A stretch of 15,915 bases of DNA, from contig JALGVI010000063.1 of assembly GCA_029838215.1 (NCBI GenBank), forward strand, positions 1 through 15,915. The letters run 5' to 3'. This document shows, piece by piece, positions 1 through 15,915 of this stretch. This DNA is from Candidatus Helarchaeota archaeon. Lineage in GTDB: Archaea > Asgardarchaeota > Lokiarchaeia > Helarchaeales > RDOG01. A program made the translations under genes and the position numbers. Positions within the stretch are counted from its first letter, which is position 1. Every line of letters begins with the position of its first letter. The notes under the pieces were generated by a model. That model saw only the letters and a list, made by a program, of their open reading frames with translations, was not told the origin of the DNA and ran no database searches.

Positions 1-192
1 AACCTCGCGTGTTTTTTTTACGTTTGACACGTTCTAAGCAACATGCGATTTTTTATCCGTCATGTTTGTTGAAAAGGATAATACCATAAATTTAAAAATT
101 TTTTAAAAATGTTTTAATTCGTGATTAGTTACGTGACTTAATCAAACTCACTGCTTGGATTTTGTGCATACGTGGATTTCAATGAAAATTCA

Positions 193-208
193 GTAAAAGC
201 CTTATTAT
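193..208 (+). promoter_or_regulatory. Putative archaeal BRE/TATA promoter of aglB
   Basis: GTAAAAGC (purine-rich, BRE-like) followed by CTTATTAT; the TATA-like centre is ~30 nt upstream of the ATG at 236, which implies a very short leader. Confidence 0.4.
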
Positions 209-235
209 CGGAATGAGAATGGAAGTCAAAACCGC

Positions 236-3200
236 ATGACGAGTATTTCACGAAAAATTAAGAACGTATTTGGTAAGATTTTTAAGAAGCCAAGTCTAAC
301 ACTTCCAAAAGAAAGCATCGTGTTATATCTTGCGCTCATGTTAATCGTCATCGGTGCATTTTGGATAAGAATTTTTCCCATTTTTTTCAATTATCCTGTT
401 TTGAAAGCATTCGATCCGTGGATCCAATACTCTGCAACGGAATACATTTTAGAACACGGTTTTGCCGCTTATTTCACGTACGTTGATCCAATGCGGTGGT
501 ATCCGTGGGGATATAAAGTCTACAAGTTATACTGTGGATTGCCCTTTTCGGCAACGATATTCTACCTCACGTTTCAATTATTTGGAATTCACATTAGTGT
601 ATATGAATCATGCGTGATTTTTCCGGCTTTTATGGGTGCCGCCGCAACGTTCTTAATGTATTTTCTAGGAAAAATCATTCACAATAAAAAGACAGGCCTG
701 TTGGCGGCATTATTTCTTGCTATCGTTCCTGCATACGTGCAGCGCACCGTCGCAGGATTTTTTGATAATGAAACAATCGGTATCTTTTTGATCATTCTAA
801 TCTTGTATTGCTTCATTAGGTCGATTAAAGAAGATTCTTCTTTTATGGCATTTATAGCGGGACTGGGTGTTGGCGGATTGATGTGCTCTTGGGGGGCTTG
901 GGCTTATATCGTTGATCTTTTACCTCTTGCCGCACTAGTAATGGTGCTAATGAAGAAATATTCAACACGTCTACTTGTTAGTTATACCATCACGATTGGA
1001 GTCGGTATTTTTATAGGATCCAGAATTCCTACAAACGGTGCGCTTGTAATCACTTCTTTTGAGGTGGTGGTCGCTACAGGCATGATAGGAGTCCTATTTC
1101 TCTTTGAAGCCTATAATAGGTTAAAAAAACAGGCGTTTCTGAAAGAACGTAATATTCCGTGGAAAAAACTCATATTTTCATCAATGATTCTTCTTTTATT
1201 TGGAATTATAATTGTCCTTACCGTACTAGCCTTTTTTCAAATAACCATTGAGGATATTTTTGCACTCCTCGGCATTGAAGAAATCTCAAGTAAATTAGTA
1301 GCCGTTCTAAACCCGTTTTCGGCGAATTTCATCATTCAATCCGTTGGTGAAAATCTACCTTCACCGTGGGGAGTCTATTATTATAACCTGCATATTTTGA
1401 TACTTTTTATGCCAATAGGTCTATTTTTCCATTTTCGACGTCTTCATGAAGAAGATGTTTTGATCATTTTATTTGCAGTTACGACAGTTTACTTTGCGGG
1501 ATCACTCATTCGTTTATTGCTTATTTTGGCTCCTGCGGCTTCACTAGTCGGGAGTTACGGAATAACCAGACTAATCGGTCCCTACTCTGATATCTTTCAG
1601 AAAAAGTTTGTAACTTCTCGCCGTCGAAAGCGTTTTTCCAAGATTGTTTCGCGTGAAACTAGTGTTGGAATCGTGGCAATCGTATCATTTCTTACATTCT
1701 TGACAGTCACTCACGGTATCTATACAGCAGCGTATCAATTATCGTCATCTGTAATGATTCCGGGTGGCCTTGAAGAGCAAACGAAATTTCATGATTGGGA
1801 AGAAACATGGTCTTGGATGCACGCGTCATTAGCATCAGGATCCGTGGTAACATCTTGGTGGGACTACGGATATTGGATTACCAGTGCAGGTAATGCAACC
1901 TCGAGTGCAGACAATGGTACCAAGAATTCCACGCAGATCGGAATGATTGGTCGTTTAATGATGGCCACAGATGAAATGGAAGCCGTAGATATTTGTAAAA
2001 TCTTGGGAACAACCCATATCTTGGTATACTGGGGCTATTATACGGGTCTTGGTGGCGATGAAGGTAAATGGGTTTGGATGGTAAAAATAGGATATGAAAA
2101 TACCATCCTGAATGAAGTCACTTACTCCTACGACATTTCAGATTATTGGGTTGAAACTGCAACTGGAGCGTCTGCAAATAAATCCTTCTTGAATAGCCTG
2201 CTTTTCAAGATGTTAACCGCAAATGAGCCTTATTATAAAGCAGCTTATAAGGATAATGATGCAACTGTTCGAAAATACAATTTTCTGATAGGAAGTTACC
2301 TGACACAATTACATTCGGGGACGGATTCAGATGGAGATCCTTGGTCACAAACGATAGAAACACCAGAACGACTGGGAAGTAACCAAGGAAATCTATTTTC
2401 TGGGTACGGTATTGACATTCCTGAATCGTATATTCTTCAGGAGCCTACCTATTTTAAGACTGCATTCGCTTCAAGTAATCATTTGGTAAAAGTATACTAT
2501 GTTGATTATATAAAGGCGGGTCTTCGGATAAATATCACGGATTCAATAGTCTATGATAGTGGGATTTCGATCATTAACGTCAAGAATATTGGTGATCGAA
2601 ATTGCACGTTAGATGCGCTTAAAATTGAAGGCACGGAGTATAAATACGACCTCCTTCAAGGAACTGGACAACTTGCTCCTGGGGAGACTGCAGTCATCAG
2701 AGCTTATGGAGCGAATTTGACCAAGGATGCTAATGTTGAAATTTCATTGGATATTTATGATCCAGAGGTGACATCGAATAGATTCACTGCTACGGCATCA
2801 GATGTTGTTACAGAGGCACCAGTTTACTCATTTTCAATTGATGAATCAAATTCCTATCTGTATAGTAACGATACGATCCACATTAAAATTGAGAATAACG
2901 GGTCGGATTATATTAAAATAGACACGATTCAGCTTTCCAATGGCATAACAACATACGAATTCTCCAACACGGAGTCCAATTATGATTATTATTTAGCAAG
3001 TGAGAGTCTTGGAACCCGAGTTATTCTTAATACATCTCAGTCAGATACCATTATCATCCCAAGTACGTCGCTTGCATCGAAATCACTTGACTTAAGTCCT
3101 GGTGAAATATTTAATGTTACATTACAGGCGAGTGCCGAAAATCAGACAAGTTTCTTTAATAATAAAATGGTGGTGGCAAATGGAAGTTGTCTGACCATCT

Positions 3201-5077
3201 TCAATCCACTTGCATATGCTAATGAATCAGTCTTTTTCACGGTAAACAATACGGGAATAACAGATGTGACGATTAGAAAATTATATCTAAACACTCCATA
3301 TTTTAATTACTATGCAACACCAAATCCGGGTGAATCAGGACTATCTTTGGTACCAGGTGCAGGACAATATTTTGCAATTGATTTTAGAGACGGTATTAAT
3401 GAACTCAACTTAAATTGGACCGAAACCTGTAGAATTAACATAGAAACCGATGAAACCTTGCATTCTGATTCTAACTTACCTTATTATAAAACAGTAGATT
3501 TGGCACCGGGTTATAGTATTAATGTTACGGATGATGCATATTCAAACGAAACATTAATTGTTAATGTGACAAATACGGGACAGTACTCTGTAGAATTAAG
3601 TGATATTTGGGTAGATAACCATGATATTGCTACAATATTGGCTCCTAATGGTAATTTCACTCTTGATCCCAATGAATCTAAGAATTTTACTGCTCTTGTT
3701 TCAAATTACAATTTTAATTTTTCAGATCAAGTCACAGTAAAAGCACGCGTGTTTGAAGGTCCCGAGAATTCAACGTCTCCAATCGTGAAACCGACTGGAA
3801 GCTTGGAAATCATTGACTCGATCGTTTATCAAAATGGAACAGCTTTTGTAAACGTGAATAATACAGGGACAAATGCGTTGTTAATTAAAGAATTCAAGGT
3901 CAATACAGAAACAATTACCGACTTCACTCCCTCTGATTATTTCTTACAACCCAGTCAAAATCAAACTTATAATTTCACCTTATCATCTGCACCCAATCCT
4001 AGTGTGGTCCTTCAATGTAATATCACTACGTATGAAGGTGCGAATGTGAGCGATTATTTGACATGGGCGGTATCGATAAATGTCACCCAAATTCATTCTT
4101 ATGATGATGGAAATGCCACAATTCGAATTGAAAATGTAGGAGCGCAAAACGTTACCATTTATGACATTTTCATCAAGAACTCTACTGGCGGAACAGAAAA
4201 TGCCACGGCAAATATAACTTACATCGAAGGTAACGCAAATATTACCGTGGGTGAGCACATCTTGATAAACGTCACGTCAAGCTTTCTAAATAATAGTTTT
4301 GGTGAACTTTTCACGTTTAATATTAGCGTGAATTATACTGCAACACCGGATATTCTAGAATATCTTGTTGAGGATCTCTTGACGCTTTCCAAAAGCGCAA
4401 ACTTTAGTTTCAGCACGGGGTATCCACATTCTCTGGCTTACGATAACAATACCAATACGGGACCCGGAACTGGGAACGATACGATATTCCTAACTGTAAA
4501 GAATACAGGATCCGTCAATATTACAATGAATCGAACTTTCTTCATATACTTCTCGCCTACTTGGGTCGATTTTACCTTTAACACAACAGACGAGAATGCA
4601 AGCCTCACCCTGCAACCGTACGAATCTCTTCAATTCATAAACGATTCGATAAATGATTATGGTTATGAATTGGTCTTTAATGATAGCCTTCTTATCAGCA
4701 GGATTAACGTGTCAGCTAACTATTCAACAACAATTATCAGCTCGATATTAGACTTGACGATTCTCACGAATGATTACAACATAACGTTGCGAAATGTGAC
4801 GACTGATAAATTAAATAATGAGATAAATTTCACGGTTGTAAACTATGGTAATAAAACATTGACGATAACGGATATCAAATACAATGATACTGACACGGGA
4901 ACGGATTACATTACTGTACAGAACCTAGACTCCGGAGTCATAGGATATCAAATTACACCATCTGAAGTGTTCTCGTTCTCGGGAGATTTCTTTAAGGCTA
5001 CTGTTGGAAAAGTCCTTCACGTCATCGTATATACGTCGGATAACCTACAACACGAATATTACGTCACGGTCACGTAG
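236..5077 (+). CDS. aglB: Oligosaccharyltransferase AglB/STT3 with a very long C-terminal array of Ig-like repeats (1613 aa)
   Basis: Multi-TM N-terminal half with STT3 motifs AFDPW, GFFDNE, SVGEN (SVSE/TIXE-like), WWDYG, DNGT and DEGKWVWMVKI. The core ends at about SNHLVKVYYVD (aa ~757), followed by ~855 aa of beta-rich repeats. Confidence 0.95.
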   Translation: MTSISRKIKNVFGKIFKKPSLTLPKESIVLYLALMLIVIGAFWIRIFPIFFNYPVLKAFDPWIQYSATEYILEHGFAAYFTYVDPMRWYPWGYKVYKLYCGLPFSATIFYLTFQLFGIHISVYESCVIFPAFMGAAATFLMYFLGKIIHNKKTGLLAALFLAIVPAYVQRTVAGFFDNETIGIFLIILILYCFIRSIKEDSSFMAFIAGLGVGGLMCSWGAWAYIVDLLPLAALVMVLMKKYSTRLLVSYTITIGVGIFIGSRIPTNGALVITSFEVVVATGMIGVLFLFEAYNRLKKQAFLKERNIPWKKLIFSSMILLLFGIIIVLTVLAFFQITIEDIFALLGIEEISSKLVAVLNPFSANFIIQSVGENLPSPWGVYYYNLHILILFMPIGLFFHFRRLHEEDVLIILFAVTTVYFAGSLIRLLLILAPAASLVGSYGITRLIGPYSDIFQKKFVTSRRRKRFSKIVSRETSVGIVAIVSFLTFLTVTHGIYTAAYQLSSSVMIPGGLEEQTKFHDWEETWSWMHASLASGSVVTSWWDYGYWITSAGNATSSADNGTKNSTQIGMIGRLMMATDEMEAVDICKILGTTHILVYWGYYTGLGGDEGKWVWMVKIGYENTILNEVTYSYDISDYWVETATGASANKSFLNSLLFKMLTANEPYYKAAYKDNDATVRKYNFLIGSYLTQLHSGTDSDGDPWSQTIETPERLGSNQGNLFSGYGIDIPESYILQEPTYFKTAFASSNHLVKVYYVDYIKAGLRINITDSIVYDSGISIINVKNIGDRNCTLDALKIEGTEYKYDLLQGTGQLAPGETAVIRAYGANLTKDANVEISLDIYDPEVTSNRFTATASDVVTEAPVYSFSIDESNSYLYSNDTIHIKIENNGSDYIKIDTIQLSNGITTYEFSNTESNYDYYLASESLGTRVILNTSQSDTIIIPSTSLASKSLDLSPGEIFNVTLQASAENQTSFFNNKMVVANGSCLTIFNPLAYANESVFFTVNNTGITDVTIRKLYLNTPYFNYYATPNPGESGLSLVPGAGQYFAIDFRDGINELNLNWTETCRINIETDETLHSDSNLPYYKTVDLAPGYSINVTDDAYSNETLIVNVTNTGQYSVELSDIWVDNHDIATILAPNGNFTLDPNESKNFTALVSNYNFNFSDQVTVKARVFEGPENSTSPIVKPTGSLEIIDSIVYQNGTAFVNVNNTGTNALLIKEFKVNTETITDFTPSDYFLQPSQNQTYNFTLSSAPNPSVVLQCNITTYEGANVSDYLTWAVSINVTQIHSYDDGNATIRIENVGAQNVTIYDIFIKNSTGGTENATANITYIEGNANITVGEHILINVTSSFLNNSFGELFTFNISVNYTATPDILEYLVEDLLTLSKSANFSFSTGYPHSLAYDNNTNTGPGTGNDTIFLTVKNTGSVNITMNRTFFIYFSPTWVDFTFNTTDENASLTLQPYESLQFINDSINDYGYELVFNDSLLISRINVSANYSTTIISSILDLTILTNDYNITLRNVTTDKLNNEINFTVVNYGNKTLTITDIKYNDTDTGTDYITVQNLDSGVIGYQITPSEVFSFSGDFFKATVGKVLHVIVYTSDNLQHEYYVTVT
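2513..5074 (+). repeat. About eight degenerate ~90-125 aa Ig/CARDB-like beta-sandwich protein repeats in the AglB C-terminus
   Basis: Recurrent hydrophobic-x-hydrophobic-x-N-x-G motif with the Asn at aa 784, 887, 1005, 1113, 1209, 1300, 1423 and 1536. Each is followed by an L-x-P-G-E-like motif (LAPGE, LSPGE, LVPGA, LDPNE, LQPSQ, ITVGE, LQPYE, ITPSE). Confidence 0.8.
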
Positions 5078-5081
5078 GTAT

Positions 5082-5100
5082 AAAAAAAATCTCTTTTTTT
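5082..5100. terminator. Putative bidirectional oligo(T) terminator between convergent aglB and aIF2alpha
   Basis: A8-TCTC-T7 in the 21-nt gap between the two stop codons, giving a U-tract on each strand. Confidence 0.6.
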
Positions 5101-6172
5101 ATTCTTTTAAAATTTCAAAATGAGCTTCGCCTTTTTGTTCACGCAAGTATTTCATTGCTTGTGCGCTGAGTTCATTCAAGGCTTCTCTCGCAATCTTATA
5201 ATCGCGTGCCTTGACATCAATTCTGTATTGGGGAGCTCCAATCGTATAAATTGAAACATCCACGTCTTCTTTTAATTTATGTTTCTCGGCTTTTTCCAAA
5301 GCATTTCTGATGATCATGACTCCTTCATTCTCATAGGAACGGAGAGTTAACAACCCGGAAAGTTTGATTTTAGCTGTTTCGGAAAATGTTTGAGACACTT
5401 TCAACAAGGCTTTATGATATTCTTTAGGAATGCCCAGCTTTTTCAATACCGGTTCACCATTATCCCGAATTTCTTCAAATGCGGTCATAATTTTTGAAAA
5501 TTTAGCTTGCATTTTCTTGGCAACATTTTCATATATGTCTTCGGCGGTAACATTTATTCCCGATTCCAGGCATTCTTTTAAAACTAGTGCAAGCGTATTA
5601 TTTTCCCGCTGGCGAATCTTCCATTCATGAATTTTCTCACGTTTTAGGTCTTGACCGACCCGACGTAATGATAAATCAATATGTCCTCTCTTCCGATTGA
5701 TCCGAAGAACTTTTGCTACTACCTTTTGCTTGGCACGAATATATCGTTTAATATTACGAACCCAAGATCCCGAAACTTCGCTAACGTGAATGAGTCCTTC
5801 CATGAGACCTTCATTTCCGCGATATTCCTCAAGTCTGACATAGGCACCGTGTCGTTCAACTTTAGTTACGGTTCCAATAACAAGTTCCCCTACATCAGGC
5901 AAATTTTTAGTAGGTATGATGGGTGTTTGAAGGATCTCTTCAATACGGACATTTTCAGAACGTTGTTTCTCGGGTGTTTCTTCGGGTTCTTCCTTAAGTC
6001 CTTCTTTGACTTCTTCAGCGGGTTCAGTTGATTCTTCCTTTTTTACTTCAGGGCTCTTCTTTTTTTTGGAGGTTTTTTTCTTTTTCTTAGCGGTTTTTTT
6101 CTTTGTTTCTTTTGCAGGCTTGGTTGGTTTGGCCGTTATGACTTTTTTTGTTTTCCTTCCTTTTTTTGGCAT
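5099..6172 (-). CDS. eif2a: Translation initiation factor aIF2 alpha subunit with a ~80-aa Lys-rich then Glu-rich N-terminal extension
   Basis: S1 domain LPDVGELVIGTV...GLIHVSEVSGSWVRNI...GHIDLSLRRV and C-terminal YTIGAPQYRIDV. It follows rps27e as in the conserved archaeal cluster. Confidence 0.95.
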   Translation of the reverse strand: MPKKGRKTKKVITAKPTKPAKETKKKTAKKKKKTSKKKKSPEVKKEESTEPAEEVKEGLKEEPEETPEKQRSENVRIEEILQTPIIPTKNLPDVGELVIGTVTKVERHGAYVRLEEYRGNEGLMEGLIHVSEVSGSWVRNIKRYIRAKQKVVAKVLRINRKRGHIDLSLRRVGQDLKREKIHEWKIRQRENNTLALVLKECLESGINVTAEDIYENVAKKMQAKFSKIMTAFEEIRDNGEPVLKKLGIPKEYHKALLKVSQTFSETAKIKLSGLLTLRSYENEGVMIIRNALEKAEKHKLKEDVDVSIYTIGAPQYRIDVKARDYKIAREALNELSAQAMKYLREQKGEAHFEILKE

Positions 6173-6185
6173 TTTATCACGTTGT

Positions 6186-6392
6186 TTAGGTCAAAACTTT
6201 CTCAATTTGAGTCCGAATCTTTGCCTTTGAACCACAAGGTTGGGCAAGTACCTTATCACACACGAGGCATTTCACGTGAGTAGAAGCACACCCGAATATT
6301 ATTTGTTCATTGCCACATTCAAGACATTTCACTTTTAAAAATCTAGATTTGGGTTTAGGGATCAACCGTTCACCGAATTCCATGAGCATCAT
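6186..6392 (-). CDS. rps27e: 30S ribosomal protein S27e (Zn ribbon)
   Basis: PKSRFLKVKCLECGNEQIIFGCAST.VKCLVC motif (CxxC...CxxC). The true start may be the ATG at 6383, which follows an AGGAATGAT SD-like stretch. Confidence 0.95.
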   Translation of the reverse strand: MMLMEFGERLIPKPKSRFLKVKCLECGNEQIIFGCASTHVKCLVCDKVLAQPCGSKAKIRTQIEKVLT

Positions 6393-6402
6393 TCCTGCGA
6401 TT

Positions 6403-6678
6403 TTAAATAATTTCTATTTTTTTCAGTCGCTTAGAAGGCATGTGTCTCATGTAGGAACATTGCTTGCACTTAATTCTTGGCACGATCTTTTTCGTATTCT
6501 TTGAGAATTTCTTTTGAATGGGCTTTGGCTGACTACCATATCCCTTCTTCTTCCGAGTATAACGCCGAGCACCTTGCCGCATGGGATTGTCCTTACCTTT
6601 CTTGTAAAGTGAAACTGTGTGGATCGTATATGCATTGCATCGAGGGCAGAATTTATTCATTTCTTTATGCATCTTCAT
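6403..6678 (-). CDS. rpl44e: 50S ribosomal protein L44e (eL42)
   Basis: FCPRC...H, RQGARRY.RKKKGYGSQPKP, KNTKK and CKQC motifs. Confidence 0.96.
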   Translation of the reverse strand: MKMHKEMNKFCPRCNAYTIHTVSLYKKGKDNPMRQGARRYTRKKKGYGSQPKPIQKKFSKNTKKIVPRIKCKQCSYMRHMPSKRLKKIEII

Positions 6679-6712
6679 GATAATGCCTTCTTTTTAACTG
6701 AATCAAGACTTG

Positions 6713-6724
6713 AATTTAAAAGCT
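6713..6724 (-). promoter_or_regulatory. Putative TATA/BRE for rpl44e-rps27e-aIF2alpha
   Basis: Minus strand reads GAAGC-TTTTAAAT about 40 nt upstream of the rpl44e ATG. Confidence 0.35.
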
Positions 6725-6888
6725 TCATGTAAGAAAGTCCAATTTAGGATTTCTCAAATTCCGTCATTCATGTTAAAGGATATAAATGACGATTTCATGA
6801 TCTTATCCTTTAGGAGCTTTTTAAACTTTTTAATTTTTTTATTGGTTTTTTCTTTTCGTCGTTGTCATGCATGATTCTCAGGAGCGGT

Positions 6889-7458
6889 TTATTTTTTAGA
6901 GATCGTGATTTCTTTAGCCGCGTTGTTTTGAATTTTGATCTTGGCATTATCTGAAGGAAGATAAATAATATCTTCTTTCTTGAACGGACCGTATGAGAGA
7001 AGATCAGATCCCATGCTGGCAGGAGCATCCTGTGTGATTCTGACTAAAGTTAGTGGCACGGATTGGGATCGTTCCACGACTGAATCCGAAGTTGAAATTT
7101 TCTCCACAGGAATTTGCTTTTGTTCATCTTCTTTTTTTTCCAAAGGTGCCTGTAATGCTTCAAAAAAAGCCAATTCTTCCCGAGTCAAGATGACTTTATC
7201 CACGGGTTCCCCTTCAAAGACAAATTGAACTATTTTCTCCTTGCGACACTTTTTTAAATCTTCCAACATTTCCGAGATGTTGTTAATTTCGGTTTCGACG
7301 AGTTCTCGAGTTTGATTGTCATCTTTTTCAAGATTTTTCTTTAAATTCTCCAGATTTGAAATATATTCTTGTACCTTGCTGAAAAGAGCAGGATCAAGTT
7401 TTTTTAGCTTTTTTGTTTCTCGTTCAGAGAACCACGTTTTATAGAGCTTTTCGCGCAT
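6889..7458 (-). CDS. gins15: GINS complex subunit, A-B domain order (Gins15/Gins51 type)
   Basis: Helical N-terminal domain (ERETKKLKKLDPALFSKVQEYI...KCRKEKIV...LTREE) and C-terminal B domain (LVRITQDAP..MGSDLLSYGPFKKEDIIYLPSDNA). It starts 1 nt after the priS stop. Confidence 0.88.
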   Translation of the reverse strand: MREKLYKTWFSERETKKLKKLDPALFSKVQEYISNLENLKKNLEKDDNQTRELVETEINNISEMLEDLKKCRKEKIVQFVFEGEPVDKVILTREELAFFEALQAPLEKKEDEQKQIPVEKISTSDSVVERSQSVPLTLVRITQDAPASMGSDLLSYGPFKKEDIIYLPSDNAKIKIQNNAAKEITISKK

Positions 7459-7459
7459 T

Positions 7460-8644
7460 TCACTTCAACTGTTTTCTTTTGGGGAGTTCGGCAATACGCT
7501 TTGATAGGGCGAATACTGCAGCCGCCATTGGTAAGTTCACTTTTTCGCCACCTTCATATGGACCGTAAATACAATCCATCATGCGAAATTCAGGACACTT
7601 TCTCATCACTAAATAAATTTCTCCCCTTTTAAAAGCAATGGCATCTTTTAAGGGATCAAATCGATCTAAAAAATCTAATGAAACCGGGATGGCTATAAGA
7701 CCAGTCTTTCCATGAAGAGACGATGGCAAGCGCAATAACCGTTTTATATCAAAGGAGACAGGAGCATCTATTTTTGCATTTATCTCAGAAACTAATTTAT
7801 TTGATAATATCGACCAGGTTTTTTGCGAGATCCCTGATACTGATTTTAATTTTGAAGGATTTTTGGAAAGACCTTGTAAGAAAGTTGTCGAGTAGTTAAT
7901 TAACTTGTTTTTAACGGGTTTTTGAATGCTAAATTTTCCCAATTTTTCCATGCTGATGTTTTGAAATAAATCAAGAAAAGCAGCATGCATTCGTCTTTGC
8001 CAGCCATATTTTGTGAGGTCTTTTTTGATAAATAAAGCTTGATCTAGGTTTAAATCAATTCCAAGTAAATAATCTACTATTTCTTGGCGTTCTCTCTGCT
8101 CCAAATATTTATAATCTTCAGCCATTACTTCTATGTGATAACCCCTATTTCCACTAAACTTGACGAGCATGTCAGATTTACTCAAGCCAAAATCGGGAAT
8201 CAAAAAATCCTCAATCACGCGTTGTGTCTCGGATTTCGCAACGTCAAGACAATTATCACATATCCAGTTCTTCGAATCAAAACGCGTGCTTCCACACTTA
8301 CATCTCGCGGGTGGAGCACCTTTCCCCTTACTACCACATTCCTTGCACTTATAAGTATCATGATCTTTTTGACAAGTCAATGGAAGATGATCTGCATCAA
8401 TGTCAATGATGAAATTGCAAGCATAGCTATCTTTTTCATCCATGCTAGACGCACTTGGACTATGGTAATAAGCCGCAGAAACATAAGCATGCTGAGGTGC
8501 TCTTTCAATCAGAAAATTCTGAAGTTCGACAACGGATAGAAAACTCAGATGTCTTTGCATCATCCCCATCTTGTCCCAATAAAAAAATCCAAATTCCCTG
8601 TTTCCAATATGATCGAGACCCGTAAGACGCTTGCCTTCATTCAA
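7460..8644 (-). CDS. priS: DNA primase small (catalytic) subunit PriS
   Basis: REFGF, HAYVSAAYY, catalytic DIDADH, FSGNRGYH and DIKRLLRLPSSLHGKTGL motifs, plus a Cys-rich Zn module. Confidence 0.95.
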   Translation of the reverse strand: MNEGKRLTGLDHIGNREFGFFYWDKMGMMQRHLSFLSVVELQNFLIERAPQHAYVSAAYYHSPSASSMDEKDSYACNFIIDIDADHLPLTCQKDHDTYKCKECGSKGKGAPPARCKCGSTRFDSKNWICDNCLDVAKSETQRVIEDFLIPDFGLSKSDMLVKFSGNRGYHIEVMAEDYKYLEQRERQEIVDYLLGIDLNLDQALFIKKDLTKYGWQRRMHAAFLDLFQNISMEKLGKFSIQKPVKNKLINYSTTFLQGLSKNPSKLKSVSGISQKTWSILSNKLVSEINAKIDAPVSFDIKRLLRLPSSLHGKTGLIAIPVSLDFLDRFDPLKDAIAFKRGEIYLVMRKCPEFRMMDCIYGPYEGGEKVNLPMAAAVFALSKRIAELPKRKQLK

Positions 8645-8676
8645 GTAATATTCTTTAAACCTAGTTTTTAAAAATT

Positions 8677-9909
8677 TTACTTCCCTGTTTTCTTCGATTT
8701 CTGTTTCCCCCTCGTCATTTTCAAATACTTTACAAGCGGAGGTGCCGCTTTTCGAATGGGAAAAAATGGATAGAAGAAGAATTGAAGAAGAATTGAAATG
8801 AAATGAGGAAAGATTATCTTTTCAAGCATCCAAACCATCCTTCTAAAAAAATTTACGGGATTTTTTATCTTTCCCTCTGAACACCAATTATAAAGGTCCA
8901 CGCTGGGAGAAATATAACAAAAGCCCTTAGTTCTCAAGCTCTTGCATCCAAAACTGTAATATTCCTTTTTCAAGGCGTGTTCTATGAAATATTCTGACTT
9001 ATCGGCTTTAAAGTCAGGAGAATGTGCAAACAATTTTAGGAGTTCATCCTTCTTGAAACCAATGCTTAGAAGAAAAAATTCTATGACGAGGCGCTCATCG
9101 TTTGAAAGATTTCTTCCAGCCAAAATATCATTATATAATTTATTGATGCAACCTGGAAATGCTTCGTTATATACATTTCCTGTATAATATTCGCCGATTT
9201 TTCGCTCTTTCTTGAAATCGTTTATTTTCGCCTTGAATTCCAGCCCTTTTTCTATCAATAGTTTAGGGAGATCGGTTTCTTCCATTTCCCCAATTATGCG
9301 TGAAATCCGTTTTGTAATCCATTTTCTCAACACTTCTTCAAATATTTGATGTAATTCTCGTCCATCTAAATTACGGACATAACCATCTCCAACTCTTCGG
9401 TTGACTAACTTCCACTTCTTTTCCATGTTATGCTTTAATTTTACATCTTTAAGCGGTATTCTAATCTCGGATAAATATTTCAAGTAATCGATTACTTTCA
9501 TTTTCCAGGTAGTCGGTTCGGTATCTTCAGGTTCGATTTTTGCGCCTAATTCCGCTATGAGTTCGATGATTTTTGAGTCCTTTTCTTTTTTTATTGACAT
9601 TCGGGTTCGTTTAGCGAAGGCTTCAGCATATCTTTGGATAAACCATTTATCATTAATGAATGAAACCAGGGCATTTTGAACGGAATAACTAAGGAATTCC
9701 GTGGCTCCTTTCCCGAGCTCCTTTGATGCAAAACTGTCAATATCTTCTAGAATAAGGTCCAAATTTTTTTCAACATTTTCCAAGACTTCAGGAACGTCAT
9801 TTAGAATGTTAAAAAGCGTGAAATTATGCTCGACTATTATTTCTCTTGCACTCGCAACAAAAGGATACTTTGCATAATAAGACCAGTTTATTTCAGAAAG
9901 GAGAGGCAT
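8677..9909 (-). CDS. priL: DNA primase large subunit PriL with C-terminal Fe-S domain and a hydrophobic tail
   Basis: YPF at the N-terminus; Fe-S domain FPGCI...G.NLSNDER...FSHSPDF-like...YQ/YF..EH...Y.FGCKSL...GFC...WC...KNP with four Cys; directly upstream of priS. Confidence 0.92.
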   Translation of the reverse strand: MPLLSEINWSYYAKYPFVASAREIIVEHNFTLFNILNDVPEVLENVEKNLDLILEDIDSFASKELGKGATEFLSYSVQNALVSFINDKWFIQRYAEAFAKRTRMSIKKEKDSKIIELIAELGAKIEPEDTEPTTWKMKVIDYLKYLSEIRIPLKDVKLKHNMEKKWKLVNRRVGDGYVRNLDGRELHQIFEEVLRKWITKRISRIIGEMEETDLPKLLIEKGLEFKAKINDFKKERKIGEYYTGNVYNEAFPGCINKLYNDILAGRNLSNDERLVIEFFLLSIGFKKDELLKLFAHSPDFKADKSEYFIEHALKKEYYSFGCKSLRTKGFCYISPSVDLYNWCSEGKIKNPVNFFRRMVWMLEKIIFPHFISILLQFFFYPFFPIRKAAPPLVKYLKMTRGKQKSKKTGK

Positions 9910-10039
9910 GAAATTCCGTCTCTTTTTCTTTTTTATTAAGATTCAATTAAGAATTTTTATGTTTAAGTTTGAGAGATCATGAAATTATTGAAAAAATAAA
10001 TATTTCTGACTTTCGTTTGTTTCCATTAAATAAGGAATC

Positions 10040-10062
10040 CGAAAGAAAAGAAGAAAAGGAGT
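10040..10062 (-). terminator. Putative pyrimidine-rich terminator downstream of the hdrA-mvhD/polyferredoxin pair
   Basis: Minus strand reads CCTTTTCTTCTTTTCTTTCGG ~40-60 nt after the stop at 10099. Confidence 0.4.
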
Positions 10063-10098
10063 CCATTTTTTGATCCGAAGCTAAAAATCACGTGAAAA

Positions 10099-11007
10099 TC
10101 ATTTATACTGGTATTTTACTTTACGTTTCGTTCGACCTTCGAGCCAGAACCGGGTCTTGATGGTATGAAGGTCTTTTTTGGCAAATTGCAGTCGGTCTTT
10201 TAGTTCTTTTAATGCTTCAGGATCCACGTGAGGAATTGCTTGTGTTTCAAAGATTTTTTTGGTGATTTCTTCAATTTGCTGGGGAATATCTCTAATCTCA
10301 AGGGGTGGAAATGTCATTCCGGTTATCTTTTCGATGGCTTGGAGCCAAGAACGTGTCCACGGAGCTTCAATTTCCTTCTTGAACTTGATTGTTTTTCGTC
10401 GGACTTCGATTAATTTTTCGGGACATCCAACGGCACATGCTCCACAATATATGCAGCGTGGTTCGTCAAGAACGATTTTATCTTTAGACATTTTTGGAGA
10501 TGAAAGTGCATCTGTAGGACAGATTTTATAACAAACGACACAACCAACGGGGTCGCATTTTTCCATGTCGTGAAAAATTAGCTTTCCCTGAATGGGAGAA
10601 TCATAATTTTTGATGTCTTTTAGTTCTGGAGGAATGAGGATCTTGTGTTTTTCGTCTGAATCGTACTTGCGTTTTAATTTCAAATAATCGTCCATGTCCA
10701 TGACAGAAGTTTCGTTGAATTTGAATGTAATTGCATTTGTCAGGCAAAGAGCTGCACACAAACCACAAAAAATGCAACGTTCCGGGTCAAAAAGTTGGAA
10801 AGGTGCTTCGAGTAGACCAGACACGACAGATCCTATGGGACCCATTTCGATTGCTTGGGTTGGGCAAATTGCGTTACAGATCCCACAACCAATGCATTTA
10901 TTATTTTCGAATAAGAGCGTTTTTTCGTCCTTCTCAGATTTCCAGATTAGAGAAGTGGTGTTTTCATCAGGCATGTCAAACTCTACTGATATTTCTTTTT
11001 CAGTCAT
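10099..11007 (-). CDS. Polyferredoxin with four 4Fe-4S motifs, resembling a shortened FwdF/FmdF
   Basis: CIGCGICNAICP, CIFCGLCAALCL, CDPVGCVVCYKICP and CIYCGACAVGCP. The AIEMGPIGSVVSGLLEAP linker and the W...W..AIEKI segment after the last cluster resemble FwdF as I recall it. Confidence 0.8.
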   Translation of the reverse strand: MTEKEISVEFDMPDENTTSLIWKSEKDEKTLLFENNKCIGCGICNAICPTQAIEMGPIGSVVSGLLEAPFQLFDPERCIFCGLCAALCLTNAITFKFNETSVMDMDDYLKLKRKYDSDEKHKILIPPELKDIKNYDSPIQGKLIFHDMEKCDPVGCVVCYKICPTDALSSPKMSKDKIVLDEPRCIYCGACAVGCPEKLIEVRRKTIKFKKEIEAPWTRSWLQAIEKITGMTFPPLEIRDIPQQIEEITKKIFETQAIPHVDPEALKELKDRLQFAKKDLHTIKTRFWLEGRTKRKVKYQYK

Positions 11008-11010
11008 GTT

Positions 11011-13383
11011 TTAACTCTCCTCTTTTTTAAATTCACTTCCAATGGGACCAATTTCCAACAATTCTTCTGTAAAATCTTCTATAATTTGCTTGATTTTAAG
11101 ACCTTCTGCTGCCGATGCGCTTTCAACACGAAGACGTTGCGGGCTAATGCCAATTTCGGACAAAATTTCTCTAAGTCCTTTTTCGCGTTGAAGCATGTGG
11201 GTGAATCCGGTTCTATAGTGACATGTTTGTTCATAGCAACCCGATACGAGCACGCCATCCGCACCTTTCTCAAATGCATGCAGGATATAAAGGGGACTAA
11301 CCGCACCAGTACATGGTACTCGGATGATTCTGATGTTAGTTGGATATTCAATTCTTGATGCCCCTGCCAAGTCTGCGGCAGCATAAGAACACCAGTTGCA
11401 GAAGAATCCTATTATAAAAGGATATTCTGTTTTTTCCTCGAGGGCATCAAGCTCAGCCATTATCTGTTCTTGGGTAAATTGAGGTTGGGAAAGTGCACCT
11501 GACGGACACCCAGCAGTACAGACCCCACATCCAATACAAGATGCTTTATTCACGTATATCTCATTTTCCCTGAATTCAATGGCGTTGGAATCACACAAGC
11601 TAATACAAAGCTTGCATCGCAGGCATTTATCTCTATCAACAACCGGAGCAATGGGTGCTACTTCTATCTCTTTCTTGATTGCAATGGCAGCGGCTTCAAT
11701 AGCGGCCAGAGATGCATGTGCCACGGAGTCTTGAATGTCTTTTGGTCCCTGAACACATCCTGCGAGAAAGATACCCGGAATTAGAGACTCCGCAGGACGG
11801 AGTTTTGGATGGGCTTCCATCAAGAAACCATCTGGACTAACCGGAAGGTGTAATTTCTTAATGAGATCTGCAAGTCCAGAGTCTGGTCCAAGTCCAACAG
11901 AAAGTACGACTAAATCTGCATCCAATTCCATTATTTTTCCAAGCATGCTATCTTCAGTTCTCAAAGTAAGATTCTTTGTCACGGGGTCTTCCAATATTTC
12001 GGATACTCTTCCCCTAATAAAATTAATATTGTGGTCCATTTGAGCTTTAACATAGAATTCTTCATAACCTTTTCCAAACGCGCGAATATCAATGAAACAA
12101 ACATTAACCTCAGCATCAGGATTGTGCTCTTTTATTTGTCGAGATTGCTTGATCGCATACATGCAGCAAACTCTTGAACAGTATTCTCTTTCGATCCGCT
12201 TGTCCCTGCTACCAACACATTGGACAAATGCAACTTTTTCAATGCGCTTTCCATCGGAAGGACGCAATAACTCTCCTTTCGTGGGACCTGAAGGTGAAAG
12301 AAGTCTCTCCATTTCAAGCCCCGTGATCACGTTTGAATACCGTCCATATCCGAATTCGTCATATTCAACATATTTTGACGGGTCAAATGTTTCATATCCT
12401 GAGGCAACAATGATGGCGCCCACCTTCAATTCGATTATTTTTTCCTTATCTTCATAATTGATGGCATCGTGTTCACAAAAGATCTCACAATTTCTGCAAC
12501 CAATACAGGCGTTTTCATCAATTACTGCTTGAAGAGGAATGGATTGCGGGAATTGAAGATATATTGCCTTGCGGGTGCCAAACTGGTTGAACTCATTAGG
12601 AACATCAATCGGACAGTGCGATGAACAATCTTCAATGCATCCGGAATTACAATTTTCGTTAACAAAACGCGGTTTTCTCAATATCTTAACCGTAAAATTA
12701 CCGATCATTCCTTTGACTTCAAGCAATTCTGAAAGCGTCAATAACTCTATTTTTTCATGTATTGAAGTCTCAACCATTAAAGGAGATAAGATGCAAATTG
12801 CACAATCTAAAGTCGGAAAGACCTTGTCAAACATTGCCATGTGCCCGCCAATGGAAGGATTTCTTTCTACCAAGTAAACTTTAATTCCTAAATCTGCCAG
12901 TTTTAATGCCGCTTTAACGCCCGCTACACCACCTCCCAAGATTAATACTGCTTGGCTCACGGGCAATTTCTCTTTTTCCAATGGGCTTTTACATTTTATC
13001 TTTCCAATTGCCATTTTTATTAAATCTACGGCTTTCTTTGTCGCATTTTCTGGTGACGAACGATGAACCCATGAATCCTGCTCGCGGATATTCGCAATTT
13101 CTACCATGAATTGGTTCAAGCCGGCGTGCTTGACGGTATCTTGAAATAGGAGTTCGTGCATCTTGGGAGAACAAGCAGCAATTACAACACCGTCCAGATT
13201 TTTTTCTTGAATTGTATTTTTCAGCAATAATAGACCGACTTCGCTGCACATGTATTCGTTATCTATGACCTCTACATCAGGTAACCTTTTGATCTCTTCC
13301 ACTACACGCTTGACATCAACTACCGCACCAATATTATGACCACAATGGCAAACAAATACTCCAATTCGCAAGATGGACACCAA
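11011..13383 (-). CDS. hdrA: Heterodisulfide reductase subunit A fused to a C-terminal MvhD ([2Fe-2S]) domain
   Basis: RIGVFVCHCG, YMCS, AACSP, NIREQDSWVH, GGGVAG FAD site, DCAICILSP, CVGSRD, YCSRVCCMY and two C-terminal ferredoxin motifs. These are followed by MvhD motifs FCNWCSYAAADLAG, IRVPCTG and GVLVSGC...CHY. Start codon is TTG (13383) or GTG (13380). Confidence 0.95.
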   Translation of the reverse strand: MVSILRIGVFVCHCGHNIGAVVDVKRVVEEIKRLPDVEVIDNEYMCSEVGLLLLKNTIQEKNLDGVVIAACSPKMHELLFQDTVKHAGLNQFMVEIANIREQDSWVHRSSPENATKKAVDLIKMAIGKIKCKSPLEKEKLPVSQAVLILGGGVAGVKAALKLADLGIKVYLVERNPSIGGHMAMFDKVFPTLDCAICILSPLMVETSIHEKIELLTLSELLEVKGMIGNFTVKILRKPRFVNENCNSGCIEDCSSHCPIDVPNEFNQFGTRKAIYLQFPQSIPLQAVIDENACIGCRNCEIFCEHDAINYEDKEKIIELKVGAIIVASGYETFDPSKYVEYDEFGYGRYSNVITGLEMERLLSPSGPTKGELLRPSDGKRIEKVAFVQCVGSRDKRIEREYCSRVCCMYAIKQSRQIKEHNPDAEVNVCFIDIRAFGKGYEEFYVKAQMDHNINFIRGRVSEILEDPVTKNLTLRTEDSMLGKIMELDADLVVLSVGLGPDSGLADLIKKLHLPVSPDGFLMEAHPKLRPAESLIPGIFLAGCVQGPKDIQDSVAHASLAAIEAAAIAIKKEIEVAPIAPVVDRDKCLRCKLCISLCDSNAIEFRENEIYVNKASCIGCGVCTAGCPSGALSQPQFTQEQIMAELDALEEKTEYPFIIGFFCNWCSYAAADLAGASRIEYPTNIRIIRVPCTGAVSPLYILHAFEKGADGVLVSGCYEQTCHYRTGFTHMLQREKGLREILSEIGISPQRLRVESASAAEGLKIKQIIEDFTEELLEIGPIGSEFKKEES

Positions 13384-13512
13384 GAATTAAAAAAATTCAA
13401 ATCAACTAAACTAAAAAAAGTAGGATTAAAAATTTTCCAAAGAATTTCAATGTAATCAAGGCTCCGAGAGTATTTAATACAAGTTTTCTTCTCAAGAGAA
13501 CTGCAACAAGCA

Positions 13513-14913
13513 TTACTCGACGCAACAGCTCATTTTAGTAATATCTCTTCTGAACGATTGGGCACCGATCTTGATGGACTCAGATAACGTCGGAAACACG
13601 TGAATCGTTTCAATGACATCATCAATTGTCATGTTATTTTTGATGATCATGATGGACTCATGTATCAAATCCGCAGCATCAACTGCCAATACGTGTATCC
13701 CCAAGATTTGTCGTGTATTATTGTCCGAGACGATCTTTATTGCCCCTCTGGTATCTCGAATCGCACGTGCTTTCGGAACAACTTCCATCGGGATCGTCCT
13801 GCAATTGCAATTATATCCCTGCTTATTTGCCACTTCATCTGTTAGACCAACTTGAGCGAGTTGAGGATCCGTAAAAATCGCATTTGGGACAACTCTATAA
13901 TCCATTTTAATTTTGGTTTTAGAAACGGCATTATTTGCAGCAATCATTCCTTGTCGCGCTGCCACGGTTTCAAGCATGGGATCACCAACTACGTCGCCTG
14001 CGGCCCAAATATTTTTTGTTGCCTGCATTTCTTCATTGACAATGATTTCTCCTTTGCGCCCTAATTGCAAGTCAAGGTTTTCCAAGCCAAGATTTTCCGT
14101 GTTCGGCCGACGTCCCGTTGCAACCAGAAGCTGTTCTCCTTGAACACTCTCAGTCTGTCCTCCAATCTCGAATTCGACGTTTATCTTTCCATCAATTGTT
14201 TTAATTCTTCTGACATCTAAATTTGTATGAATCTCAATGCCTTCATCTTGTAAGTATTCTGCCAGAAGTTTCGTGAGGATATCTTCTGCTCTTGTTATTA
14301 TTCGGTCGGCGCGTTGTAGGAGGTATATTTTCGTGCCAAATCGCGAGAACATTTGAGCAAATTCAACGCCTAGCGGTCCACCTCCCAGAACTATTAGTGA
14401 GTTGGGACGTTTATTAAGGCTCAATATTTCCTTGTTCGTCAAGAAATTTATTTTTTCAATTCCTTCAATTGGAGGAATTATCGTCGAAGACCCTGTAGCG
14501 ATTATGAATTTGTCCGCTTCGTAGACTTCTCCGTTTACAATAACTTCGTTCTTCGACATGAATTGAGCATTACCATTAATGAAAGAAACATTGTTCAAAT
14601 TCGAAAGCACTTTCTCATATTTTTCAGCACGCAACACGTTTACGAGCTCATCTTTTTTCTCAAAAATTGTTTTAAAATCAAAAGATGCCGAAGTCGTCAA
14701 GCCACCAAAATCATTTGATCTTGCATCATGAATTAACTTGCTCACGTGCAATAGATGCTTTGTCGGAAGACAACCGACATTAACACATGTTCCACCTATT
14801 CCAACATCTGAATTATTAATGAATAATGATTTCGCGATCGAATCGTTTGCTTTTATAGCAGCAGAGAATCCTGCGGCACCTCCACCAATAATTATCAAAT
14901 CAAATTGAGACAT
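13513..14913 (-). CDS. merA: Mercuric reductase MerA-type flavoprotein disulfide oxidoreductase without an NmerA domain
   Basis: GGGAAG FAD site, GGTCVNVGCLPTK redox disulfide, second Rossmann GGGPLG...LQRADR, HVFPTLSE and the MerA-diagnostic C-terminal Cys pair (KMSCCVE). SD-like GAGG/GGAG upstream. Confidence 0.8.
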   Translation of the reverse strand: MSQFDLIIIGGGAAGFSAAIKANDSIAKSLFINNSDVGIGGTCVNVGCLPTKHLLHVSKLIHDARSNDFGGLTTSASFDFKTIFEKKDELVNVLRAEKYEKVLSNLNNVSFINGNAQFMSKNEVIVNGEVYEADKFIIATGSSTIIPPIEGIEKINFLTNKEILSLNKRPNSLIVLGGGPLGVEFAQMFSRFGTKIYLLQRADRIITRAEDILTKLLAEYLQDEGIEIHTNLDVRRIKTIDGKINVEFEIGGQTESVQGEQLLVATGRRPNTENLGLENLDLQLGRKGEIIVNEEMQATKNIWAAGDVVGDPMLETVAARQGMIAANNAVSKTKIKMDYRVVPNAIFTDPQLAQVGLTDEVANKQGYNCNCRTIPMEVVPKARAIRDTRGAIKIVSDNNTRQILGIHVLAVDAADLIHESIMIIKNNMTIDDVIETIHVFPTLSESIKIGAQSFRRDITKMSCCVE

Positions 14914-15070
14914 GATACTCCGATCCTCATTTAGAATTAGTCAAGAAAAACTAGTGAAAACTCATATATGATGGCTTGGTTCGATTTAAACAACTATTTG
15001 ATAAAAAATTAGTGATTTTAATTTTAATTCTTGTTAAATTGCTTTTTTCGCAATTATTGATCTAGATTTG

Positions 15071-15745
15071 CTATCTGAAGAAGAACTCCATTGTTGATCG
15101 TTCAACTTTCCGCAAGTGTTCGCCTATTGCTGAATTTGAAATTCCAAAATGTTTCGCTATTGCTTCGGTGCGAATTTTTTTAGGTGAGTCGTAATAGCCA
15201 TGACGAACTGCATACGAGGCAATTTCTCGTTGGCGATCCGTGAAATTCGGTTGAAGAAGATTTGATGGTAAAATGTCTTTTCCCACATCATTTATGGCCA
15301 AAACCTCTAATGATTTTGTAAATTGCCCAATCGTGTCATATAACTTTGATACTAAATTATCTTCGATGATCAGGTTGATCTTTATTGATTCCGAATCCAC
15401 GGTGAGTGGTGGGATGAAAGCCCATGGTCCTGGAGTGATTAATGCCTTTGGCCAAAAGCCTTTTTCCGTGCTCACTTTTACAATGCAAAGGATTGAATTA
15501 TCGACTTTTTTCAACAGGTGAAAGAAATCTACCTGTAGTTTGTCTTGAATTTTTTCGGACCAATTTATGTCTTCCCAGTTGTCCATTAATTCGGGTCGAA
15601 ATACGATTCGATCAAGGGAAAAAAAACTATTCTGATCATACTGGAAGGCATTCAATAGTTCTAAATACATTATTTCATTAAATACATCGGGATATCCTGC
15701 TTTAACTAAAAAATCCGAAGATAATCGCATTCTAATAAATTTCAT
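15071..15745 (-). CDS. Transcriptional regulator with a C-terminal HTH_10 (bacterio-opsin activator type) domain
   Basis: FTDRQREIASYAVRHGYYDSPKKIRTEAIAKHFGISNSAIGEHLRKVE matches the T.RQ.E.L..A...GYYD.PR....E.LA...GIS....EHLRK.E pattern. Confidence 0.88.
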   Translation of the reverse strand: MKFIRMRLSSDFLVKAGYPDVFNEIMYLELLNAFQYDQNSFFSLDRIVFRPELMDNWEDINWSEKIQDKLQVDFFHLLKKVDNSILCIVKVSTEKGFWPKALITPGPWAFIPPLTVDSESIKINLIIEDNLVSKLYDTIGQFTKSLEVLAINDVGKDILPSNLLQPNFTDRQREIASYAVRHGYYDSPKKIRTEAIAKHFGISNSAIGEHLRKVERSTMEFFFR

Positions 15746-15766
15746 GAAAAAAACTTCTCAATTTTA

Positions 15767-15774
15767 TTTATAAA
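15767..15774 (-). promoter_or_regulatory. TATA box of the HTH regulator gene (probably leaderless mRNA)
   Basis: TTTATAAA centred ~26 nt upstream of the ATG at 15745. Confidence 0.5.
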
Positions 15775-15788
15775 GCTATTGTAATAGA

Positions 15789-15806
15789 TGGTTGTCATGA
15801 CAAGCA
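15789..15806. promoter_or_regulatory. Palindromic candidate operator in the divergent promoter region
   Basis: Perfect 12-bp palindrome TTGTCATGACAA (15792-15803), extended by TG/CA after one mismatch. Confidence 0.45.
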
Positions 15807-15876
15807 CTTGATTCATAATACTTGTTTTTCATTATTTTCTTGTAATAAAATAACTGAATGAAACTCGTGATGCAAG

Positions 15877-15915
15877 TTGAAAGTACTGTTAACCGGTGCA
15901 TTTGGAAATGTAGGG
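15877..15915 (+). CDS. 5' end of an NAD(P)-binding Rossmann protein (NAD-dependent epimerase/extended SDR-like), truncated by the window edge
   Basis: TTG start after an SD-like GTGATG, reading (M)KVLLTGAFGNVG, a TGxxGxxG motif. There is an in-frame TGA just upstream. Not in the supplied ORF track. Confidence 0.75.
   Translation, partial: MKVLLTGAFGNVG

Follow-up and report, generated by a model that had tools for sequence, protein, structure and literature searches.

The locus described here raises the question of why an archaeal oligosaccharyltransferase (OST) should carry, beyond a complete catalytic core, a further half-protein of tandem extracellular domains. The gene lies in a 15,915-nucleotide (nt) stretch of DNA from a Candidatus Helarchaeota archaeon (GenBank assembly GCA_029838215.1, contig JALGVI010000063.1, positions 1 to 15,915; hereafter the window), which forms the start of contig C2 in a genome of 3.6 Mb and 170 contigs that is 94.3% complete. 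It is an aglB/STT3 gene (236..5077, + strand) encoding 1613 amino acids (aa) without a stop or frameshift. Our analysis shows that its product is an undescribed variant of a known enzyme, in which a eukaryote-like STT3 core is fused to eight repeats related to the heads of archaeal pilins and rich in N-glycosylation sequons; the function of this tail is what we infer.

The catalytic portion of the protein is conventional and most similar to that of eukaryotes. Its membrane domain (aa 27-495; 314..1720, +) matches Pfam STT3 (PF02516) over aa 32-436 with an E-value of 1.7e-44, and contains the approximately 12-13 hydrophobic segments that a hydropathy scan places between aa 28 and 495. The same scan finds no hydrophobic segment past aa 495, and the protein is thus without a C-terminal anchor, as the preliminary description of this sequence had stated. 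The external catalytic core (aa 496-766; 1721..2533, +) is recognised by its motifs and by alignment to human STT3A, and is matched by AglB/STT3 core models at aa 524-596. The catalytic acidic motifs are present (D60 in FDPW, D177 and E179 in FFDNE, and E372 in SVGE at 369-372), as is WWDYG at aa 541-545 (nt 1856-1870); the DK motif reads DEGKWVWM at aa 608-615 (nt 2057-2080), a form reported to be typical of Loki/Thor AglB (PMC11284389). All of the catalytic and sequon-binding motifs are invariant in an alignment of eight proteins. The nearest solved structures are eukaryotic: human STT3A (6FTJ, 6S7O) aligns over aa 27-660 with an E-value of 4e-87 and yeast Stt3 (6C26) with 5e-74, and the DxD, SVxE, WWDYG and DK motifs are common to both sides. 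Similarity to archaeal AglB structures, including the euryarchaeal AglB-L, is confined to the region around WWDYG (E ~1e-5). A second, shorter aglB paralogue, raised as a possibility in the preliminary description, was sought in the genome and none was found; with one STT3 homologue detected in an assembly of this completeness, there is no short paralogue available to take over catalysis. Judged from its sequence and intact motifs, the protein is the organism's single, eukaryote-like STT3/AglB and should be catalytically competent.

The core passes into the tail without a linker. Its last strand ends near aa 765 and repeat 1 follows at once, which places the start of the tail at about aa 767 rather than at nt 2513 (aa 760), where it had first been set. 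The central observation of the preliminary description, an STT3 core followed by a long open tail of eight repeats 91-123 aa apart, is borne out by the uninterrupted reading frame and by the motif [VILFM]x[VILFM]xNx[GS], which occurs at aa 780, 883, 1001, 1109, 1205, 1296, 1419 and 1532 (spacings of 103, 118, 108, 96, 91, 123 and 113 aa). An N-x-G/S version of the core described there is accordingly present in all eight repeats, and the LxPGE-like turn in most of them. Two additional matches to this loose pattern, at aa 978 and 1465, lie within repeats 2 and 7 and do not indicate further domains.

The number of domains was examined with an independent hidden Markov model (HMM) built from only the five repeats of a Lokiarchaeal relative, P0003 (1233-aa AglB, 33% identical overall), with 200 shuffled tails as controls. 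This model returns exactly eight domains at the motif positions, six of them scoring 13-38 bits against a shuffle maximum of 7.3; repeats 1 (7.1 bits) and 8 (2.8 bits) fail to exceed the shuffled tails. An AlphaFold2 model of aa 740-1613, calculated from an 11-row alignment, is all-beta with a mean predicted local distance difference test score (pLDDT) of 77 and contains no disordered linkers; repeats 1-7 are confident, the first two domains reaching pLDDT ~90, and repeat 8 falls to 32-57. Repeat 1 (aa 767-868; 2534..2839, + strand as for all repeats) is an Ig-like (immunoglobulin-like) beta-sandwich with pLDDT ~88-94 that is found in all orthologues. Motif, model and HMM agree for repeats 2 (aa 870-986; 2843..3193; 19.3 bits), 3 (aa 988-1094; 3197..3517; 20.6 bits) and 5 (aa 1192-1281; 3809..4078; 26.1 bits), while repeat 4 (aa 1096-1190; 3521..3805; 37.9 bits) is the nearest to the consensus. 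Repeats 6 (aa 1283-1404; 4082..4447; 16.8 bits) and 7 (aa 1406-1517; 4451..4786; 13.4 bits) are supported by model and HMM and carry 12 and 10 sequons, respectively. The distal repeat 8 (aa 1519-1613; 4790..5074) is divergent; it retains VxNxG at aa 1532 and is the least conserved, with 17-41 of its 95 positions identical in orthologues. On the combined HMM and pLDDT scores the count is best given as seven solid domains and one divergent terminal unit. The eight beta-sandwiches originally anticipated hold for repeats 1-7, and only tentatively can the fold be extended to repeat 8.

The relatives of the repeat were sought with a profile made from 21 repeats of three proteins. Against the PDB this profile matches the Aap pilin of S. 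acidocaldarius (8Q30, E 2.9e-6) and a type IV pilin of P. calidifontis (8FK7, E 9e-4), and AbpX more weakly. Pfam Arch_flagellin (PF01917) is matched by three of the 21 repeats (best E 1.7e-6) and FlaF_Ig-like is also matched; no single tail repeat of the 1613-aa protein passes the Pfam cut-off alone. Repeat 4 modelled on its own has a pLDDT of 85.7 and 8Q30 as its top Foldseek match. In VIA-align its best match is FlaF/FlaG (5TUG, Z 10.7, root-mean-square deviation 1.8 over 84 residues), together with 8FK7 (Z 10.3), 6W8U (10.1), FlaF (4P94, 9.3), 8Q30 (8.8) and archaellins (8.3-9.2); this makes ArlF/ArlG the closest of the folds proposed for comparison in the preliminary description. PCuAC copper chaperones are interleaved with these matches at Z 9-9.8, and the fold alone is therefore not specific to pilin, ArlF or ArlG heads. 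Bacterial S-layer domains show a generic Ig-like similarity at Z 7-8, inside the background range. With the whole tail as query, Foldseek finds nothing beyond generic arrays of Ig domains (Hydin, mastigoneme, alpha-2-macroglobulin, titin) at template-modelling scores of ~0.1-0.2, as expected of a flexible rod, and a search of the ESM Atlas with repeats 3-5 gives generic CARDB/Ig leads only (best score 0.81, all below 0.9). Profile and model evidence together assign the repeat to the head domain of the archaeal type IV pilin/archaellin/ArlF-ArlG superfamily, minus the N-terminal helix.

Other candidate families fared less well. The initial label of CARDB-like domains has to be given up: CARDB (PF07705) is unlisted at E<=1 for the protein and absent from the 25 families that the 21 repeats match most often, and the CARDB leads in the ESM Atlas are sub-threshold at 0.76-0.78. 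The Ost1/RPN1, Wbp1/OST48 and Swp1/RPN2 families likewise have no Pfam match in the protein. The repeats share the beta-sandwich fold (Z 8.8-10.7) and profile similarity of archaeal pilin, archaellin and ArlF-ArlG heads (8Q30, 8FK7, 6W8U, 6W8X, 5TUG, 4P94), and they are sequon-rich, as are the pilins of Sulfolobales. Unlike true pilins, they have neither a class III signal peptide nor a hydrophobic helix, and they form eight tandem copies within an enzyme rather than separate filament subunits.

The most striking property of the tail is its density of N-x-S/T sequons, of which it contains 53 against 19.3 +/- 3.8 in composition-preserving shuffles; none of 5000 shuffles reached this number. The first 757 residues hold five, where 3.3 are expected. 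The excess is a feature of all six eight-repeat tails that we identified, which have 2.4-2.9 times the expected number (z 7.5-10.4; 2.7 times in the window protein). The sites are also conserved in position. Twelve of the 53 align exactly with a sequon in each of the five other eight-repeat orthologues, and 21 do so if a shift of up to two columns is allowed; pairwise comparisons give 17-37 shared sites where chance would give 3-4. Among the 17 tail columns that are invariant in the eight-protein alignment, five are sequon asparagines (N878, N960, N996, N1060 and N1104) and one is a sequon threonine (T1106); the remainder belong mostly to the structural NxG turn.

The six proteins (1586-1715 aa) come from independent assemblies of different samples, and their eight repeats correspond one-to-one although identity drops as low as 40% in the core and 28% in the tail. 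They are deposited in GenBank, under Candidatus Helarchaeota or Lokiarchaeota, as "STT3 domain-containing protein" or "hypothetical protein", with the tail unannotated. In a tree of the enzyme cores they form one clade (Shimodaira-Hasegawa approximate likelihood ratio test support 100), whose sister is a large clade of proteins that have four to five repeats; the tree gives P0003 no firm position. Sequence and phylogeny thus indicate that the eight-repeat architecture is fixed and vertically inherited. The greater length of one of the six, the 1715-aa orthologue P0008 (labelled Candidatus Helarchaeota), is accounted for by a Cupredoxin_1-like insert (PF13473, E 3e-6) at aa 928-1003 in its proximal tail.

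In the source genome the repeat profile matches these eight copies only, and an exhaustive HMMER search with the tail against 1.84 billion representatives gave 17 matches, all convincing ones being STT3 fusions or partial copies of them on contig fragments. A related-locus search with the tail alone gave no confirmed relative, whereas full-length alignment did find relatives. A survey of Asgard AglB lengths, as the preliminary description had envisaged, spans ~690-1715 aa. In the 151 genomes of the window's class most open frames are ~1200-1370 aa and nearly always single-copy; in its order, four relatives with whole frames have 1627-1715 aa, with one exception at 1367 aa; other families of the phylum have ~690-1270 aa. 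Between one and eight repeats are detected in Asgard AglB tails. Four to five occur in Promethearchaeota, including the cultured Promethearchaeum syntrophicum MK-D1 (L046, 1326 aa). The five-repeat AglBs of Lokiarchaeales, that of MK-D1 among them, belong to the sister clade, carry the same tail family and lie in the same gene order (aglB, aIF2alpha, L44e, GINS, PriS, PriL). Among the named loci surveyed, two repeats are found in a separate clade, and none was detected in Thor-, Heimdall- or Borrarchaeota or in Bathyarchaeia. By these sequence comparisons the eight-repeat tail is the longest form of a tail carried by many Asgard lineages, and is lineage-wide rather than unique.

The novelty claimed at first therefore stands in part. 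In the openly accessible literature on Asgard AglB/STT3 we found no published description of the tail, and the text of a 2024 JBC model of the MK-D1 Sec61/OST/TRAP translocon is silent on it (PMC11417166); the architecture itself is widespread in Asgard archaea and its proteins are already in GenBank. New here are the leave-out HMM test, the finding that sequon excess differs between eight- and five-repeat tails, the conservation of sequons at the level of single columns, the core tree and the OST1-like orthologue described below. Two observations concern the database labels of such proteins. The best tblastn match (L092, DATKTP010000174.1; E 2e-162) bears the bacterial label 'Candidatus Deferrimicrobium sp.'; its AglB is of the Asgard type and has five repeats, and the contig is probably a mis-binned Asgard one. 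In metagenome-assembled genomes labelled Hodarchaeota, Odinarchaeota or Hermodarchaeota (L034, L039, L040, L073 and others) the AglB cores nest in the Promethearchaeota five-repeat clade; these labels or bins look unreliable, and we have not relied on them.

Comparison with characterized OSTs highlights how far the tail departs from known arrangements. Eukaryotic STT3 ends at ~700-830 aa and has no Ig array, whereas the Helarchaeota protein continues for ~850 residues and eight domains. The euryarchaeal AglB-L of A. fulgidus and Pyrococcus (2ZAG, 3VU1) is a single-chain OST with extra beta-rich peripheral units (PMC3703281). These amount to one or two compact units in a total of ~870-970 aa, with no tandem pilin-like array and no reported saturation with sequons.

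In the established topology of STT3 the C-terminal catalytic domain is extracellular and everything past the last helix lies outside; with no second anchor, the tail would have to project from the membrane. Based on these observations, we regard a self-glycosylated extracellular stalk on a cell that lacks an S-layer as the most likely role of the tail, a view we hold with moderate confidence. The tail would form an acidic rod (11% Asp+Glu against 4% Lys+Arg) of roughly 25-35 nm if extended, at ~4 nm per Ig domain. Its 53 sequons would most likely be glycosylated by the same enzyme, or by a neighbouring copy, during export of the tail, and the resulting glycan-coated stalk could contribute to the disordered glycoprotein coat of the cell and may space or shield the enzyme at the translocon. 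Lokiarchaeia have no ordered S-layer and display unordered protruding surface proteins (PMC9834061), and S-layer proteins were undetected in P. syntrophicum in its glycoproteome study (PMC11284389). A rod of glycans borne by the enzyme would be in keeping with an envelope of this kind. The stalk is favoured over other roles because the conserved features of the tail are fold-determining turns and sequons, with no evident binding patch.

Several observations weigh against this role. Cells usually contain little OST, which speaks against a contribution to the bulk of a coat, and the distal repeat is poorly supported as a folded domain by both its pLDDT and its HMM score. The five-repeat tails of Lokiarchaeales have only a weak excess of sequons (1.2-2.1 times expectation, z 0.6-3.4); that of cultured P. 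syntrophicum MK-D1 has 16 where 10.1 are expected. Heavy glycan loading cannot, therefore, be the ancestral reason for the tail. Moreover, the main text of the P. syntrophicum study, the sole glycoproteome from an Asgard archaeon, reports that N-glycosylation is rare and falls mostly on one solute-binding protein, and does not name AglB among the glycoproteins (PMC11284389).

An alternative, which we think unlikely, is that the tail is a substrate-handling arm, its pilin-head-like domains binding nascent secreted proteins near the active site. Such an arm would chaperone, for instance, pilin- or archaellin-type or other beta-rich surface proteins, or recruit them in the manner of a lectin. The homology of the repeats to ArlF/ArlG and pilin heads is consistent with this idea, as ArlF/ArlG domains engage other surface proteins in archaella, and the rigid attachment of the first two, confidently modelled domains to the core without a disordered linker would suit it. 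However, once the structural NxG and PGE turns are set aside, most conserved positions belong to sequons and form no obvious binding patch, eight domains would reach far past the active site, and conservation is lowest in the repeat at the distal end.

The resemblance of the tail to the heads of filament subunits, and its composition, which is that of glycoproteins secreted by archaea (acidic, with much Asn, Ser and Thr and little Cys), would also suit a polyprotein, in which the STT3 gene is a mere export vehicle and the tail is cleaved after export to give a free or loosely held surface or filament protein. We consider this improbable. Neither a linker nor a recognisable cleavage motif marks the point where the core strand runs into repeat 1, and the sequence of this junction is conserved; nor does the repeat profile find other matches in the genome, the HMMER relatives being only STT3-fused proteins or contig fragments.

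The preliminary description also suggested that the tail might substitute in cis for accessory OST subunits (Ost1/ribophorin I, Wbp1, Swp1). At first sight the Pfam models Ribophorin_I, OST48_N and Ribophorin_II favour this, with no match in the source genome, but the same models are also silent in control genomes. The Ribophorin_I model matches 46 of 61 genomes of the class, in which its homologues accompany long AglBs, among them G008 of the same family (AglB frame 1627 aa) and G002 of the same order (1646 aa). The Ribophorin_I-positive protein of G008 finds a full-length 636-aa orthologue in the source genome (E 9e-53 and 2e-25; G000:C11:13586-15454, - strand), which the Pfam model missed and which we regard, from this orthology, as a candidate divergent OST1. 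An OST3/6-like protein of 182 aa is encoded on contig C111 (PF04756, E 1.6e-7). In possessing OST1-like and OST3/6-like partners the Helarchaeota genome resembles the eukaryotic OST; it differs in that homologues of Wbp1 and Swp1 were undetected, with the caveat on the Pfam models just given. The coexistence of these genes with the tail argues against replacement in cis, as does the fold family of the tail, which is of the pilin/ArlF/ArlG and not the ribophorin type, and this explanation is left with very little probability. P0003 comes from a Lokiarchaeal genome in which a gene for an OST3/OST6-like protein of 149 aa (L002 1366-1815) lies ~4 kb upstream of aglB.

Finally, an assembly chimera or a read-through of two genes is scarcely credible: the window does start at a contig end, and two public DNA runs give only short, low-depth contigs within nt 320-2549, but one of these, an identical 151-nt contig, spans the junction (nt 2399-2549), the frame has no stop there, GC content is even across it (0.36-0.41 over aglB, without a step), and the same fusion, with conserved junction sequence and synteny, recurs in six proteins from separate assemblies; open frames of 1627-1715 aa are also present in G008, an assembly of 10 contigs, and in other genomes of the order.

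The surroundings of aglB are conserved in relatives. The gene for aIF2alpha (5099-6172, -) is convergent with aglB and ends 21 nt downstream of it; beyond it lie genes for GINS51, PriS, PriL, a polyferredoxin, an HdrA-MvhD fusion, a flavoprotein disulfide reductase and an HTH_10 regulator. The order aglB-aIF2alpha-L44e-GINS-PriS-PriL is also found at the locus of P0003. The window aIF2alpha has 357 aa, with its S1 domain from aa 92, and the syntenic gene at the P0003 locus 265 aa, so that the window lineage has an N-terminal extension of ~90 aa. PriL (8677-9909, -) has 410 aa, and its Pfam domain, at aa 162-331, does not account for the surplus over the 361 aa of the PriL encoded at the syntenic Lokiarchaeal locus L002. 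The segment 10099-13383 (-) encodes an HdrA-like flavoprotein-MvhD fusion (790 aa) directly followed by a 302-aa polyferredoxin, and no hdrBC or hydrogenase genes are found around them within the window.

To our knowledge, no prokaryotic protein is closer to the catalytic subunit of the eukaryotic OST than the Asgard STT3. It has been used to reason on the move of the Sec61/OST/TRAP translocon to the endoplasmic reticulum (PMC11417166), and yet most Lokiarchaeia STT3 proteins have 500-950 extra extracellular residues that are absent from the text of that paper. A pilin-like, sequon-rich tail bears on how an archaeal OST sits at the cell surface, on the make-up of the unordered surface densities of Asgard cells without an S-layer, and on whether an OST can serve as its own dedicated substrate. 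The cultured relatives P. syntrophicum and L. ossiferum carry the shorter form, which makes the idea testable now. In its boldest form, which we consider less likely than not, the idea would be that the Helarchaeales OST is one of its own main substrates, through a pilin-like tail of ~30 nm bearing up to ~50 glycans. If this were true, every translocon-associated OST would plant a glycan-coated stalk on the cell surface, and the OST would be a structural element of the S-layer-less Asgard envelope, whether as a spacer, as a shield against proteases or viruses, or in syntrophic cell-cell contact.

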